Part shown: positions 3,766-48,426 of the stretch, in pieces
How the letters are laid out: every line of letters begins with the position of its first letter
How positions within the stretch are numbered: position 1 is the stretch's first letter
Source of the DNA: an uncultured virus (IMG/VR IMGVR_UViG_3300031133_000402)
Lineage: Duplodnaviria > Heunggongvirae > Uroviricota > Caudoviricetes
IMG/VR virus record: IMGVR_UViG_3300031133_000402
Strand: one strand, 5' to 3'
Length of the DNA stretch: 64,000 bases
Program-made: the position numbers and the translations under genes
Notes under the pieces: generated by a model
What the model saw: only the letters and a program-made list of their open reading frames with translations
Database searches by the model: none
What the model was told of the DNA's origin: nothing

Positions 3766-4629
3766 TCAGGACACGATCGGCGCAAGCGCCATGCGTCGCG
3801 CGAGATCCGGCGTGGGTGCCGTGCCGTAGGGGATGAGCCTGGCCGCATTCACGGTGATGCGCATGCCGTTGGCGATGTCCTCCACGGACGCCACCTCGCA
3901 GGTGCGCGCGGCGTCGTCGACGTCGGCGTGCCCCGTGGTCGGCAGACCGAGCACCTCGCCGAGCGCACGTCCCTCGATGCATGTGCGCAGCGTCTCCGGC
4001 ATCCCGCCCGGCAGCGTGATGGTGTGTCCGCCCGTCGTGGCGTGGTCGTAATGCGGTATGGACGCGACCGTGACCGCGCCGAGGCCACCGGTGTGCAGCG
4101 GCATCAGCACGCCTGCCCGCAACGACTGCATGACGCCGTGAGAATACCACGCGTCGACGGCGGCGTTGCCGTGGCGCCCCGGATGGGCCGTCTGCCCCTC
4201 CTCGTCCGTCTCCCACCTGTCCATGGCCGAGCACGTCTCGCCGCGGAACGGCATGCGCGTGCGGTCCGGATCGTGCGACAGCAGCACCGCCAGGAGAAGG
4301 GGATGCACCAGCACCGCCCAGCTAGGCATCCGGTCGAGATGATGCGCCTGCGCCTGGCGTCGCAGTGACAGGTGGGCCAAGGCGTGCACCCTGGCCACCG
4401 TCTCAGGTCTCACGACGTGCGGAGACTTCGGGTCCCACGCGTTGGCCACGCCTTCGAGACCGTATCCCGGCGCCAGACCGTTGGTGCCGAGGTGGACGTG
4501 CATCTGTCCCGAACCCATCGGCGATGCCTGGAAGCATGAGGGCATCGGCAGCCCCTCGTCGGCGAGCAGAGCGGCGACGGCGGATTCCACCGCGGGCCTC
4601 TGGATGTCGATGGCGTCGTCGAGCGTCAT
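3766..4629 (-). CDS. GRPL-domain family protein (long N-terminal subtype)
   Basis: MPETLRTCIEGRALGEVLGLP motif. Confidence 0.7.
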   Translation of the reverse strand: MTLDDAIDIQRPAVESAVAALLADEGLPMPSCFQASPMGSGQMHVHLGTNGLAPGYGLEGVANAWDPKSPHVVRPETVARVHALAHLSLRRQAQAHHLDRMPSWAVLVHPLLLAVLLSHDPDRTRMPFRGETCSAMDRWETDEEGQTAHPGRHGNAAVDAWYSHGVMQSLRAGVLMPLHTGGLGAVTVASIPHYDHATTGGHTITLPGGMPETLRTCIEGRALGEVLGLPTTGHADVDDAARTCEVASVEDIANGMRITVNAARLIPYGTAPTPDLARRMALAPIVS

Positions 4630-4658
4630 GGAGCGTCCTTCCCCGGAGTGGTGCCTTG

Positions 4659-28085: not shown

Positions 28086-28547
28086 CACTGCACCGCCTGG
28101 TAGCGTTTGGTGATGTGTCGGCACTGCGCCTTCGTGCACGGACCGATGCCGAGCGCGGTGATCACCGGTTCCCCGGTGAAGTGGGGCAGCAGGATGTGGT
28201 CGCGATCGGTGACGACGGCATGCGGGATGCCGGCTTCAGCGCACTCTCGCGCCGCGCGCTCGAGTTGACCGAGGTTTTTCGCCTTGATGGTGACCTTGGA
28301 ACCGCCGATCGCATTGTTGTTGCGATACGAGAGGGCGGTCTTCGGATCCTTGTCGAGACAGTCGAACAAGGCGTCCGTATATGCGTGGCCGCTCTGAGCC
28401 GAGAGCTTGCCCGCAGGCATCTCTAGGTCGGCGCGGATCAGCGCATAGATGTACAGCTTCTCGCTGTGGTCGTTGGTAACTGGGGTATTCTGTTCTTCTG
28501 CCTGAGGCAGTGCGGTCTCACCGTATTGGTCAATGGTTCAGGTACAT
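28085..28547 (-). CDS. pth2: peptidyl-tRNA hydrolase, PTH2 family; 5' end requires +1 recoding or a non-canonical start
   Basis: YIYALIRADLEMPAGKLSAQSGHA...SKVTIK...VVTD...TALGIGP are PTH2 motifs; the first strand lies upstream of the first in-frame ATG (28420), with no ATG/GTG/TTG before the in-frame TGA at 28538-28540. Confidence 0.85.
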
Positions 28548-28625: not shown

Positions 28626-28637
28626 TAAACTCTTTTC

Positions 28638-28816
28638 GGTTCTCCGGATTATCGGGTTGAAGCCTGAAGTCTTCTAACCGATCCGGTTCTCCGGGGCCCT
28701 GCCGAAGGAGGGCTTGCCGGCGTTTCCGAAGCGAGCCGGGCCAACGCCCAGGCTTTCCTGTGACGGACCTTGCGGTCCGCACGCTCCTCTCGGGTCGAAC
28801 CCCGAGACGGCGGCCG
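28638..28816 (-). ncRNA. putative omegaRNA/reRNA scaffold of tnpB copy 1
   Basis: Several hairpins (UUCG, GCAA loops) 3' of tnpB, with compensatory changes versus copy 2. Confidence 0.7.
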
Positions 28817-30214
28817 TCAGGCCGCCAGAAGTCCGCGCTGCAACACAATGCAAGCGGCGTTGTGGTCCGCATCGAGATCGGCGCCGCAGGAGCAGACGTA
28901 TCTGCTTCCGCGTCTGGCGCCAGGCTCCCGTTCGCCGCAGAGCGAACAGTCGTTGGATGAGTTCATGGGATCCACGGACATGACTCTGCCACCGGCGCTT
29001 GCAGCCTTGTAGCGCATCATTCCGTAGAGGATGGATATTCCAGCATCGTTCATGGCGCGGTTGAGACCACGCTTCTGGGCGACGTTGACGCCGGGCTCGG
29101 TCACCGTGCCGGTGGCCGATCGTGTCATGTTCTTGAGCTTGAGAGCTTCGACGACATTCGTCTCGGCGGCGGTGACCACGTCCTTCGAGACCTTGTGGTG
29201 ATGCGTGCGCCGCCTGTTGGCGGTGGCGTTCCTGGCGCGTGAAAGCGCACGCTTGGCCTTGTTACGACCATGGCTTGCCCGCTTGCAGCGGGCAAGCGCA
29301 CGCGCCAAGCGACGCGTTTCCGGTGCGTCTGCTTTCAGGAACTTCGGATTCTCTACGAAGGTCCCGTCGTCGAACGTCAAGAGACGACGGACGCCAGCGT
29401 CCATACCGCGCACTGTACCAGGTTTGGCATGTGTAGTGGCTACATCGTTGCACTCGCATACGATGCTCGCCCACCAGAACCGTCCATCGTAGGTAAGACG
29501 TACCGTCTTTGCCATTCCCGGCAGATCCCGGTGCATGCGCATGCTCATAGCCCCGTGCCAGAGCAGGGGTGCTTTGAGTTTATCACCGTCAATACTTATG
29601 CCACTTCCAATAGGGCAACCGATCGACCGAACGCGGTCATAAGACTTAAAACGCGGAAAGCCGGGGGTCTTTCCAGCTTTCACGCGCTCGAAGAACGCAT
29701 CCATCGCATTGTGCACGATGTCGACGTGATCTCGAAGCACTTCCAGGGGAATCCGACCGATCCCATCGGGATCGTTCTGTCGGATCAGCGCAAGGCGACG
29801 GTAGTGATCGGCCTTCGATACTGGTCGACCGAAGGATTCGGCAGTCCTGGGTCGCCAGGGGATCGGGTTCAAACCCATCGGATCGGCCTTGGGATCGCCT
29901 GCGGCGATCCTCGGACGGAGCTTGGCGATGCGACGGGCCTCCGACTGCGCGTGACGCCGGCGCAGATCCGATTCCTGACGCACCTGCCAAGCCAGGAATT
30001 CGACGATCTCCTCCTGGCGAACCAAAATCCAGTCTGCCGCAATAGGTTTGTCTCGACCTTGCCGCGCCGCTACGCGGCGCGCTGCTGCATACGAATCCCT
30101 GAGTTCCTGAAGACACGCATTGCGCAATTGCATCAAATGCCAACGCACACCTCTCAAGCTCGCATACATCGCGGTGCTAAGCTTGAGTTTGTGACGTGCG
30201 GTGCGAACCTGCAT
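28817..30214 (-). CDS. tnpB: TnpB RNA-guided endonuclease (465 aa)
   Basis: GFPRFK; RuvC-I GMDAG; RuvC-II VVEALK; CSLC/CSC zinc finger; RuvC-III DADHNAA. Confidence 0.92.
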   Translation of the reverse strand: MQVRTARHKLKLSTAMYASLRGVRWHLMQLRNACLQELRDSYAAARRVAARQGRDKPIAADWILVRQEEIVEFLAWQVRQESDLRRRHAQSEARRIAKLRPRIAAGDPKADPMGLNPIPWRPRTAESFGRPVSKADHYRRLALIRQNDPDGIGRIPLEVLRDHVDIVHNAMDAFFERVKAGKTPGFPRFKSYDRVRSIGCPIGSGISIDGDKLKAPLLWHGAMSMRMHRDLPGMAKTVRLTYDGRFWWASIVCECNDVATTHAKPGTVRGMDAGVRRLLTFDDGTFVENPKFLKADAPETRRLARALARCKRASHGRNKAKRALSRARNATANRRRTHHHKVSKDVVTAAETNVVEALKLKNMTRSATGTVTEPGVNVAQKRGLNRAMNDAGISILYGMMRYKAASAGGRVMSVDPMNSSNDCSLCGEREPGARRGSRYVCSCGADLDADHNAACIVLQRGLLAA

Positions 30215-30221
30215 GGTTATA

Positions 30222-30250
30222 ATCATAGTATCGTGGTTTTGAAGCGTCAA
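30222..30250 (-). promoter_or_regulatory. sigma70 promoter TTGACG-N17-TATGAT, leaderless tnpB start
   Basis: -35 overlaps the left TIR; ATG is 7 nt after the -10; conserved in copy 2. Confidence 0.7.
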
Positions 30251-30275
30251 CCTGATAATCCGCAGAACCCTCTTT

Positions 30276-30491
30276 TCACGACCAGCCGTTGATCACGGCC
30301 ATCCACATTCCGAGCCCCACGGACGTCGCCATGCTCGTCAGGAACAGCACCGTGCTGATGGCTTCCGCCACCCTAGGATGCGTCTTTCCGTAGCGTGCCT
30401 TGGCGTGGCCCGCGAGCGTCACCAGACCCATCGCGACGGCCGCCATGCAGGCGAGTGCCGCCACGCTGATGGCGAAGGTGGCTATTGTCAT
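30276..30491 (-). CDS. small two-TM membrane protein
   Basis: Hydrophobic ORF; its stop codon overlaps the TSD. Confidence 0.6.
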   Translation of the reverse strand: MTIATFAISVAALACMAAVAMGLVTLAGHAKARYGKTHPRVAEAISTVLFLTSMATSVGLGMWMAVINGWS

Positions 30492-45603: not shown

Positions 45604-46023
45604 TCAGATTCCAGGGATCGTGAGGCTGGAGCCGCGATCGAGATGCATCGGCGCGACGGTGCAGGCGGCGAGACCTCCGGGCAGCGCGCGCACCCGCTCG
45701 ACGTGCGTGTCGAGGACGCCGATCTCCGCCTCGTCGACGGACCCGTCGCTCATCGCCCGGCGGGCCGGCTCCACGGCGGACGGACACTCGGTCTCGATGG
45801 CCTTGGCGTAGCGCATGCCGGCATCGTCGATCATGCGGTTGGTCGTGGCCGCCATGCTGAAGGGGATCTGCGGTGCCGCGACCAGCGCCGCGCACGCGGC
45901 CAGCATGCAGAACCCCAGCAAGTGCATCACGATGTCGGCCTTCCAGGTGGACGTCGTGGCCTGCTTCGCGTCGTAGGCGCTGCCATCGTGCCGGCGCCGC
46001 GACGTGTCGTCGATCTCGTCCAT
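45604..46023 (-). CDS. membrane protein, family E
   Basis: CPSAVEPARRAMSDGSVDEAE...LPGGLAAC. Confidence 0.6.
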   Translation of the reverse strand: MDEIDDTSRRRHDGSAYDAKQATTSTWKADIVMHLLGFCMLAACAALVAAPQIPFSMAATTNRMIDDAGMRYAKAIETECPSAVEPARRAMSDGSVDEAEIGVLDTHVERVRALPGGLAACTVAPMHLDRGSSLTIPGI

Positions 46024-46281
46024 CGTCGAAAGTCCCCCTTGTCGTAAGTGCGTGAGTGGCGTCAGTAGCCGTCCGCGTCGATGTCGTCGGCCGACACTTC
46101 GTAGCCGAGGTCGATCGCGGTCTTCTCGGCGTCTTGGCGGCTGCCGAGATACGTCGCGAGAATGCGCGGATCGTCCTGATCCTCGAGCGGAGAGAAGTCC
46201 CGCAGGGGATCCACGGCGTCGAGCGCTGCGGCCAGATCGGCTGTGACGACGTGCCAGAAGTCGGTTCTGCGGATTATCGGG

Positions 46282-46310
46282 TTGATGCTTCAAAACCAAG
46301 TGGTTATGAT
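46282..46310 (+). promoter_or_regulatory. sigma70 promoter TTGATG-N17-TATGAT, leaderless tnpB start
   Basis: Same position as in copy 1; ATG at 46318. Confidence 0.7.
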
Positions 46311-46317
46311 TATAACC

Positions 46318-47715
46318 ATGCAGGTTCGCACCGCACGTCACAAGCTGAAGCCTAGCACAGCAACGTATACGAGTTTGAGAGGTGTGCGGTGGCATTTGAT
46401 GCATCTGCGCAATGCGTGTCTTCAAGAGCTTCGTGATTCGTACGTGGCAGCGCGCCGCGTAGCGGCGCGACACGGTCGAGACAAACCCATCGCCGCGGAC
46501 TGGATCTTGGTTCGCCAGGAGGAGATCGTTGAATTCCTGTCCTGGCAGGTGCGACAAGAATCGGATCTGCGCCGGCGTCACGCGCAGTTAGAGACCCGTC
46601 GCATTGCCAAACTCCATCTCAGGATCGCAGCGGGAGATCCCAAGGTCGATCCAACCGATTTGAACCCGGCTCCTTGGAGGTCCAGAACGGCCGAATCCTT
46701 CGGTCGACCAATATCAAAGGCTGATCACTACCGCCGCCTTGCGCTGATTCGCCAGAACGATCCCGAGGGGATTGGGCGGATTCCCGTTGCAGTACTTCGA
46801 GATCAAGTTGACATCGTGCACAAGGCGATGGACGCATTCTTTGAACGCGTGAAGGCGGGGAAAACTCCCGGCTTTCCGCGCTTCAAGTCCTACGACCGCA
46901 TTCGATCATTGGGCTCCCCGATCGGTGGAGGAATCAGTCTCGAAGGAGACCTTCTAAAAGCACCCATGCTCTGGCATGGTGCCATACGCATGCGTATGCA
47001 CAGGGATCTGCCAGGTGTAGGAAAGACGGTACGTCTCACCTACGATGGTAGGTTCTGGTGGGCCAGCATCGTCTGCGAATGTGGCGATGCAGCCACTACG
47101 CACGCCAGACCAGGCACAGTGCGAGGCATTGACGCCGGCGTCCGTCGTCTTTTGACGTTTGATGACGGGTCCTTTGTAGATAATCCGAAGTTCCTGAAGG
47201 AAGACGCACCGGAAACGCGTCGATTGGCGCGTGCGCTTGCCCGCTGCAAGCGAGCAAGCCATGGTCGCAACAAAGCCAAGCGTACGCTGGCGCGCGCCAA
47301 GAACGCCACCGCCAACAGGCGGCGCACGCATCACCACAAGGTCTCGAAGGACGTGGTCGCCGCCGCCGAGACGAATGTCGTCGAGGCTTTGAAGCTCAAG
47401 AACATGATGCGCTCGGCTGCCGGGACGGTGGCAGTACCCGGCGTCAATGTCGCCCAGAAGCGCGGTCTCAACCGCGGCATGAATGACGCGGCAATATCCA
47501 TCCTCTACGGAATGATCCGCTACAAGGCTGCAAGCGCCGGTGGCAGGGTTATCGCCGTGGTTCCCATGAACTCGTCCAACGACTGTTCGCTTTGCGGCGA
47601 ACGGGAGCCCGGCGCCAGACGGGGAAGCAGATATGTCTGCTCCTGCGGTGCCGATCTCGATGCGGACCACAACGGCGCTCGCATCGTGCTGCAGCGCGGA
47701 CTTTTGGCGGCCTGA
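46318..47715 (+). CDS. tnpB: TnpB RNA-guided endonuclease (465 aa)
   Basis: GIDAG, VVEALK, CSLC/CSC, DADHNGA; close paralogue of copy 1. Confidence 0.92.
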   Translation: MQVRTARHKLKPSTATYTSLRGVRWHLMHLRNACLQELRDSYVAARRVAARHGRDKPIAADWILVRQEEIVEFLSWQVRQESDLRRRHAQLETRRIAKLHLRIAAGDPKVDPTDLNPAPWRSRTAESFGRPISKADHYRRLALIRQNDPEGIGRIPVAVLRDQVDIVHKAMDAFFERVKAGKTPGFPRFKSYDRIRSLGSPIGGGISLEGDLLKAPMLWHGAIRMRMHRDLPGVGKTVRLTYDGRFWWASIVCECGDAATTHARPGTVRGIDAGVRRLLTFDDGSFVDNPKFLKEDAPETRRLARALARCKRASHGRNKAKRTLARAKNATANRRRTHHHKVSKDVVAAAETNVVEALKLKNMMRSAAGTVAVPGVNVAQKRGLNRGMNDAAISILYGMIRYKAASAGGRVIAVVPMNSSNDCSLCGEREPGARRGSRYVCSCGADLDADHNGARIVLQRGLLAA

Positions 47716-47894
47716 CGGCCGCCGTCTCGGGGTTCGACCCGAGAGGAGCGTGCGAATCGCAAGATTCGTCACAGGAAAGCCTAGGCGTTGGCTTGGCTCG
47801 CTCCGGAAACGCCGGCAAGCCCTCCTTCGGCAGGGCCCCGGAGAACCGGATCGGGTTGAAGCCTTCAGGCTTCAACCCGAGAATCCGGAGAACC
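47716..47894 (+). ncRNA. putative omegaRNA/reRNA scaffold of tnpB copy 2
   Basis: GAATC-GCAA-GATTC vs GGACC-GCAA-GGTCC in copy 1; 13-bp hairpin tcgggttgaagcc-ttca-ggcttcaacccga. Confidence 0.7.
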
Positions 47895-48003
47895 CAGAAG
47901 TCGTCGGGATCGCGTCCACCGCTCACGACGTTGATCAGCACCGCCTGTTTTTTCGCCGTGCATCCTGGCGCCATGTAGACGGACTGCTTGGCTGCTTCCG
48001 TCT

Positions 48004-48330
48004 TCATGCGAGCCTCGCCCGTCGGTCGACCAACCATTCGCGCAACTCCGCGACCCGCCCGACGGTCTCCGCGATGGAGCACAGCAGACAGAGTGCTCCG
48101 CCGCTCATGGCCATGCCGGCCATCATGTAGTCCATGCCTCCGTGCGAACGGCGCAGGCCGTAGACGCCGAGGCAGACGAGGCCGGCGGCGATCACCCACA
48201 TGCTCAGCGCCCTCAGCGCGTACCAGTGCCAGCGGCGCGAGAACAAGGTGCCGTACATCGCCGGCGTGAACAGCACCACGCCCACGGGCAGCCCCAGCAT
48301 CGCCACGACTTCCAGGATTCCAGGTGTCAT
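48004..48330 (-). CDS. membrane protein
   Basis: Three hydrophobic segments. Confidence 0.6.
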   Translation of the reverse strand: MTPGILEVVAMLGLPVGVVLFTPAMYGTLFSRRWHWYALRALSMWVIAAGLVCLGVYGLRRSHGGMDYMMAGMAMSGGALCLLCSIAETVGRVAELREWLVDRRARLA

Positions 48331-48426
48331 GCAGCAGTCCCCTTTTGATTTCGATGTCGTCGGTATGAATTTCTGACGGTGGCCTCGCCATCCCGGCCGT
48401 GGATCCGCGCGCGAACGATGTTCGTC

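Follow-up and report, generated by a model that had tools for sequence, protein, structure and literature searches.

We conclude, with moderate confidence, that a 179-nt region flagged downstream of a tnpB gene is the omegaRNA (reRNA) scaffold of a TnpB RNA-guided nuclease carried on an ISL3-type non-autonomous element. Gene and region lie in the window, by which we mean the whole 64,000-nucleotide stretch of DNA analyzed, itself part of a metagenome contig. The helices of the region are conserved and covary, and it is recovered by a model trained on other clades only, which supports an earlier note that had read the region as an omegaRNA-like scaffold absorbing the right inverted repeat. We infer that such an RNA exists and is bound by TnpB.

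Two copies of one element

The window contains two opposite-orientation copies of a single 1632-bp element that are 87% alike (Table 1). Four occurrences of the inverted-repeat pattern were counted in the window (0.00 expected), copy-to-copy identity stops at 47894, and the G+C content of the element is 0.60 versus 0.65 for the window. All items described in the earlier note lay where it had placed them, and the flanks it had quoted for both empty sites were correct. Excision of copy 2 in silico yields a 370-codon minus-strand open frame (stop to stop); the two parts into which copy 2 splits this ORF (46065-46262 and 47903-48391) match no Pfam family. The site restored by excising copy 1 is intergenic and lies 217 bp upstream of a gene for a PTH2-family peptidyl-tRNA hydrolase (28088-28420, minus strand; Pfam, 1.1e-13). 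This gene is on the same strand, 217 bp past the right end of copy 1, and read-through out of copy 1 would run into it.

A strain 98.9% identical to the window (L003) carries copy 1 at the same site. One contig from sequencing run X8 has the copy-1 version of the right end, including all 12 copy-1 variants of 47750-47894, and leaves the window sequence exactly after 47894; its flank is unlike both window sites and therefore represents a third insertion site. Contig pieces from four sequencing runs were of low depth and scattered across the element, with neither joints nor RNA ends among them.

Table 1. Features of the element in the window and the basis for each
Feature	Coordinates	Strand	Basis or remark
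Copy 2 of the element	46263-47894	+	Terminal inverted repeats, 8-bp duplications, one gene
Copy 2, left 8-bp target-site duplication	46255-46262	.	Identical to 47895-47902
Copy 2, left terminal inverted repeat	46263-46288	+	23/26 bases equal the reverse complement of the right end
Promoter-like site	46282-46310	+	First hexamer within left inverted repeat; ATG 7 nt past second hexamer
tnpB, 465 aa, sole gene of the element	46318-47715	+	Pfam, NCBIfam, catalytic residues
Helix H1, stop codon in hairpin loop	47706-47723	+	MFE; aligned to helix 1 of model R1
Helix H2 (47731-47735, predicted pseudoknot 5' strand)	47725-47744	+	5/5 complementary to 47890-47894
Helix H3, outer stem around hairpins 47750-47772 and 47778-47798	47745-47804	+	Covariation between copies; outer stem aligned to R1
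Helix H4	47812-47841	+	MFE; outer stem aligned to R1
Helix H5, 3' arm is the inner right inverted repeat	47846-47888	+	Hairpin at same place in other clades
Copy 2, right terminal inverted repeat	47869-47894	-	Last five bases (47890-47894) are the predicted pseudoknot 3' strand
Putative guide: right 8-bp duplication (47895-47902) and flank	47895-47914	+	Length assumed; inferred from TnpB model and pseudoknot
Copy 1 of the element	28638-30269	-	tnpB 28817-30214; 3' structured region 28638-28816
Copy 1, 8-bp duplications	28630-28637 = 30270-30277		Exact direct repeat

The tnpB gene

The predicted protein matches the Pfam families OrfB_IS605 (PF01385; 2.2e-19, 70.3 bits against a cut-off of 30.5) and Cas12f1-like_TNB (PF07282; 3.7e-14, 53.1 bits, cut-off 26.3) and the NCBIfam model guided_TnpB (NF040570; 165.7 bits, cut-off 100); the IS200-specific and IS607-specific TnpB models both scored below their cut-offs (107 versus 425 and 96 versus 350, respectively). 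The RuvC residues D272, E356, and D450 are invariant in 19/19 aligned sequences, both window copies included, as are C423, C426, and C443, the zinc-finger cysteines located between RuvC-II and RuvC-III. The nearest solved chains are TnpBs (E 2.9e-19, residues 132-465 covered), namely 8bf8, 8exa, and 8h1j, which we take to be ISDra2 TnpB; unlike these chains, the window protein has ∼130 additional N-terminal residues outside the match. The tnpB ORFs of the two copies are 86.1% identical, and their differences fall 32/25/138 by codon position, indicating that both genes are under purifying selection. Judged by its sequence, TnpB is intact and belongs to the RNA-guided endonuclease family, and cleavage activity is predicted.

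The promoter-like site upstream of tnpB is a consensus match only (9/12 positions, spacer 17) and the sole sigma-70-like site in 46200-48000. Its second hexamer is just 7 nt from the ATG, which suggests a leaderless or near-leaderless mRNA. Clade C elements have similar hexamers at the equivalent place, as compared by eye.

A covarying structure downstream of tnpB

Between the stop codon and the right end (47716-47894), the two copies are 93.3% identical, bearing out the conservation of the 179-nt region reported earlier; this divergence of 6.7% compares with ∼30% at third codon positions (∼70% identity). The 12 differences within these 179 nt include six that form three compensatory pairs, comprising the two swaps already noted (47755/47766 and 47757/47764) and a third that the earlier note lacked (47783/47794). 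Two others are G-C/G-U switches (47793 and 47803), one is unpaired, and three disrupt pairing of the H5 5' arm in copy 1. Pairing is therefore preserved by 8 of the 12 differences, with the three compensatory pairs and the two wobble changes all located in H3. The fold of copy 2 is more stable than that of shuffled sequences (z = -6.07; 0/200 shuffles equally stable), as is the fold of copy 1 (z = -3.42; 1/200).

The long hairpin that had been described as built from the right inverted repeat (H5) was confirmed and has 18 bp in copy 2. Uncompensated changes at 47855, 47857, and 47862 weaken its 5' arm in copy 1. Elements of the copy-1 type are found at a second site despite this degraded H5, and the long form of the hairpin is accordingly not essential. 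The X8 contig shows that the copy-1 type, with its weakened last hairpin, has inserted elsewhere too.

Conservation of the structure across clades

Protein searches returned ∼25 relatives at 58 to 71% identity, Novosphingobium terrae among them, and further clades at 37 to 47%; the cross-clade DNA comparison drew on the latter. A scan of 82 entries for 8-bp direct repeats abutting inverted repeats recovered eight elements with one repeat type and exact 8-bp duplications (both window copies, L004, L007, L020, L027, L082, and L083), spanning at least four clades; L082 and L083 are Bosea plasmids carrying the tnpB element. L028 has the element ends with a decayed duplication, and L005 has the right end only. 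Seven further loci (L008, L010, L025, L051, L063, L070, and L071) had an 8-bp repeat and a match at 15 to 19 of 26 positions, but of unrelated sequence, and were dropped as chance matches or another kind of element.

Among the matches listed, a metagenome scan returned the window, one near-identical strain, and more distant clades, and a scan of genome contigs with patterns from a single protein returned one distant locus only. A viral_contigs scan for TnpB relatives gave only matches of ≤32% identity, plus a 58% fragment covering residues 400-462 (L162). In L082 (Bosea sp. ANAM02), a nucleoside monophosphate kinase gene appears to be split by the element (2090-2299 and downstream of 3656), and a short annotated CDS stops at the left junction of the element. 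TnpB-like matches numbered 26 in the genome from which L001 derives (G001, Ktedonobacteraceae), which also has several full ISL3 transposases.

We built a covariance model (R1) from the 3' regions of six clade C and D elements, with the window excluded, and applied it to 47 sources (251 kb). Four strong matches resulted, among them full-length matches to both window copies (copy 2, 47703-47886, E 5.3e-7; copy 1, 28638-28829, E 3.5e-5); the others were L005 (2.4e-9) and a minus-strand remnant in L004 (5.5e-8). The next-best match in the window was at 0.047. When applied to 29 loci with the repeat motif and without tnpB, ISL3 elements included, R1 gave 0 matches, indicating that the structure belongs to tnpB rather than to the element ends.

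In a 10-sequence alignment (A4), which was fitted to the model and thus favors structure, 92.8% of cells pair versus 37 to 48% with partners slid, 39/49 modelled pairs change on both sides, and 0/500 shuffles reach the observed values. A structure-blind MAFFT alignment of 6 sequences gave 90.9% of cells paired and 9/49 pairs changing on both sides; 0 to 1 of 500 shuffles reached most measures, and 76/500 reached that for further pair types. The G-U pairs fit an RNA of the tnpB strand, with one U-G invariant across the 8 sequences that are ungapped at that pair. Five helices make up the layout common to the clades, which differ in where the ORF ends: in the H1 loop in the window clade, in the H4 loop in clade C (the ORF running through H1 to H3), and at the last hairpin in clade B. 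In all clades this last hairpin takes its 3' arm from the inner part of the right inverted repeat, and its 5' arm varies in length and sequence.

The clade B element of L004 (2909-4607) interrupts an omegaRNA-like remnant encoded on the other strand (L004:2789-2950 and 4486-4657, both minus). The two parts of the remnant match R1 (E 5.5e-8 and 0.0016), and the element is inserted in the conserved middle helix. The remnant has no tnpB ORF with it and may be either a decayed copy or a guide-RNA module that stands alone.

Helices at this position could instead form a structured 3' untranslated region with no guide role, stabilizing, terminating, or shielding the tnpB mRNA, with TnpB inactive or using another RNA. 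The insertion sites show no TAM-like motif, as this explanation would have it, and the region has no Rfam family: 46000-48200 gave 0 matches at E up to 1, and four related loci gave just one unrelated sub-threshold match. We nevertheless consider it unlikely. No terminator-like site was found on the plus strand from the stop codon to the flank, and there is no U-tract terminator. The five-helix layout is kept across clades at 37 to 47% protein identity, even inside the ORF, and pairing of a loop with the element's last bases (see below) would have no role in a simple stabilizer. Moreover, the region has the position and size of known TnpB reRNAs (PMC10691335, PMC10711439).

ISL3-type ends of the carrier

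A viral_contigs scan for the repeat core identified 30 loci. Three elements of 2.0 to 2.9 kb among them have the repeat motif inverted at both ends and encode ISL3-family transposases (three Pfam domains; NF033550, 253 bits, cut-off 180). Exact 8-bp duplications flank 3/3 of these ISL3-transposase elements and 8/8 TnpB elements. Compared by hand, repeat identity is 24/26 for L020 versus L095 and 23/26 for L083 versus L101 (clades C and D), and 18/26 for the window left end versus L097. Because ISL3 transposase genes are bounded by these same inverted repeats and by 8-bp duplications, the TnpB elements probably belong to the ISL3 type as non-autonomous members that are mobilized in trans. IS6 was also considered as the partner family, on the basis of its repeat starts and of the 8-bp duplication, and was discarded when ISL3 elements proved to carry the same repeats.

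The 64-kb window has no ISL3 transposase, its best tblastn match being at E 0.46, and none passed the cut-off on either of the 2 Bosea plasmids carrying the element; none of the TnpB elements was seen with a partner transposase. The window-type repeat had 0 matches in viral_contigs, and the plasmid collection contained no close relatives of the ISL3 transposase. A Bosea sp. RAC05 plasmid has a solitary inverted repeat adjoining an AbiEii/AbiGii toxin-family gene (L089:3498-3520), with no partner repeat, tnpB, or transposase within 4 kb.

These results bear on whether the mover could be a DDE transposase outside the ISL3 family, with the shared repeat core convergent. Repeats of the window clade match ISL3 elements less well than those of clades C and D, at just 18/26, and no ISL3 transposase was detected next to the TnpB elements. 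We find this reading distinctly unlikely, given that clades C and D share 23 to 24 of 26 positions with ISL3 elements, that the same core and the same duplication length of 8 bp occur in all clades, and that the TnpB proteins and the RNA are homologous across all of them. As the transposase is absent from the element, and the ends and duplications are of ISL3 type, an ISL3 transposase encoded elsewhere is the most likely mover.

The hairpins might also act at the DNA level, as single-strand transposase signals like those at IS200/IS605 ends or as extra transposase-binding sites. Parts of the inverted repeat recur in H5 and in the H2 loop, and the left end of L004 also forms a 22-bp hairpin, as such a role might predict. 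We regard it as very improbable, since the G-U pairs become A-C mismatches on the opposite strand, H1 to H4 are located 50 to 190 nt from the end, elements with ISL3 transposases and the same repeats do without the structure (the 29 loci with 0 R1 matches), and 8-bp duplications point to a double-strand DDE mechanism rather than single-strand transposition.

Comparison with known systems

The window element resembles IS200/IS605 TnpB systems in the protein family and catalytic triad, in a structured RNA region that overlaps the tnpB 3' end and reaches the right end of the element, and in a guide expected from the flank. IS200/IS605 elements are described as without terminal inverted repeats or target duplications (PMC13565253), unlike the carrier here, which has both and, also unlike them, shows no fixed motif at the left flank. 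The same three features rule out membership in the IS200/IS605 (IS1341, TnpB-only) group.

TnpB on DDE transposons is already published. Altae-Tran et al. (2023) described six DDE-associated TnpB branches with inverted terminal repeats (DDE-1 to DDE-6), in which no more than 250 bp separate the tnpB 3' end from the terminus of the element, and noted that solo TnpBs share ends with transposase-bearing elements and so are probably mobilized in trans (PMC10691335). The element described here is similar, with its inverted repeats and a tnpB 3' end 179 nt from the terminus. In DDE-5, a TA motif is located 8 bp upstream of the end (PMC10691335 supplement); that motif was not seen here. As partner families, the main text of PMC10691335 names IS630 only, for DDE-6, and a 2026 review lists ISL2, IS630, and IS1031 (PMC13565253); ISL3 is not named as a TnpB partner in the consulted text of either. 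Literature on ISL3 and RNA-guided TnpB, judged by titles and the starts of abstracts, yielded none bearing on the case. The window family may already be among the DDE branches (Additional Files 10 and 11 of PMC10691335), the comparison here being with their text description only.

A further parallel is with Fanzor1 and Fanzor2*, whose reRNAs come from eukaryotic cut-and-paste transposons and whose RNA scaffold is predicted to include the terminal inverted repeat (Yoon et al. 2023, PMC10711439). As in that proposal, an end sequence imposed by the transposase appears to be recoded into RNA structure here. Unlike the Fanzors, the carrier is prokaryotic and has ISL3-type ends, its end bases are predicted to pair with an upstream loop, and its 8-bp duplication varies and so cannot belong to a fixed scaffold. 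The carrier is like ISL3 insertion sequences in its inverted-repeat core and 8-bp duplications, including duplicated bases that look A+T-richer than the 65% G+C window, and unlike them in missing a transposase gene, its cargo being tnpB and the structured RNA region.

Scaffold end, guide, and TAM

We predict a pseudoknot between the H2 loop and the last five bases of the element. All five pairs form in 7 of 10 elements and four of five in the other 3; across clades the pairing occurs in four versions, and cross-clade combinations of loop and end give 3 to 4 of 5 pairs. The support comes from four or five independent clades, and two of the five pairs never vary. In 4 elements whose two ends differ in their first five bases, the loop holds an exact copy of these bases from one end, and it follows the right end rather than the left. 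The loop of the window copy also holds an exact end copy, but both of its ends share these five bases, so this case does not discriminate; the loops of L004 and L027 hold no such exact copy. MAFFT alignment A5, in which clade C is one column out of register and the L004 hairpin is broken, was set aside for the pseudoknot tally. In another TnpB reRNA, a -130/-3 pairing was broken and then rescued by mutation (PMC10711439).

Because the predicted pseudoknot uses the last five bases, the RNA probably reaches the last base of the element, and the guide would start with the duplicated target bases. This agrees with the earlier suggestion that a guide, if there is one, begins at the element end. The earlier note had also considered a fixed internal guide, in which the scaffold would end at 47847 and the next bases, similar to the inverted repeat, would be a constant guide targeting the element's own ends; the ten-base word on which it drew does occur twice (47838-47847 and terminally at 47885-47894), and the bases after the first occurrence are complementary to the right inverted repeat, but we dismiss this as extremely improbable because the stretch is the 5' arm of H5, which consists of two 4-bp segments in clade C and a 13-bp arm of different sequence in clade D, because it carries the three uncompensated copy-1 changes, because the repeated word is not found in other clades, and because the predicted pseudoknot puts the scaffold end at the element's last base.

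Positions -1 to -5 before the duplications were compared by hand at 8 insertion sites, a small number in which clades may differ, and none was fixed; the commonest base was G at -2 (5/8 sites). With no conserved base before the 8 duplications, a classical TAM-dependent cut at the empty site would not be explained. A guide that starts with a random 8-bp duplication, with no fixed base preceding it, may mean a very relaxed TAM, one of the options raised in the earlier note, or none. The duplication itself starts with G/C followed by A/T in 8/8 TnpB elements (46255-46256 and 28636-28637 in the window) and at the X8 site. In a small sample of ISL3 elements, this start was seen in 0/3 in the orientation read and in 1/3 in the opposite one. 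It may reflect chance or a constraint imposed by the nuclease or guide.

Proposed mechanism and implications

In the mechanism that we propose, transcription would start at the promoter-like site in the left repeat, traverse tnpB and the 179-nt region with its right inverted repeat, and continue into the flank. The RNA would fold into H1 to H5, with H5 using the inner right inverted repeat as its 3' arm. The five terminal bases of the element would form the pseudoknot with the H2 loop, leaving the 8-bp target duplication and then the flank as the guide. Movement of the transposase-less element would most likely depend on an ISL3 transposase encoded elsewhere. With a guide that begins with the target duplication and flank, each insertion would write a guide against its own unoccupied site. 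Cutting of that empty site on a sister chromosome or plasmid would then copy the element in by repair.

ISL3 elements are reported to form circles and presumably move by copy-out-paste-in (10.1101/2023.06.07.543989), in which case restorative homing would not be needed. Homing into empty alleles has been reported for IS605 on plasmids (PMC13565253), and by analogy this is more likely to be the benefit here than restorative homing. A broader scenario is that a bacterial TnpB lineage moved onto ISL3-type, presumably copy-out-paste-in, transposons, had the transposon end written into its guide RNA, with the inner repeat as one hairpin arm and the last five bases as a pseudoknot strand coevolving with a loop upstream, came to work with a relaxed TAM or none, and serves as a homing drive rather than as an aid to repair after excision; we offer this tentatively and think it, taken as a whole, rather doubtful.

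If it is true that no fixed TAM is needed, a nuclease of 465 residues would be of interest for genome editing. ISL3 is a likely partner family beyond those listed in the consulted text of PMC10691335 and PMC13565253. The element would be a case of an RNA-guided nuclease adapting to a changed carrier, in which the end required by the transposase is kept and reused as RNA structure, a reuse that resembles what has been proposed for the eukaryotic Fanzors. The family also poses the question of what use a homing nuclease would be to a transposon that is not excised.
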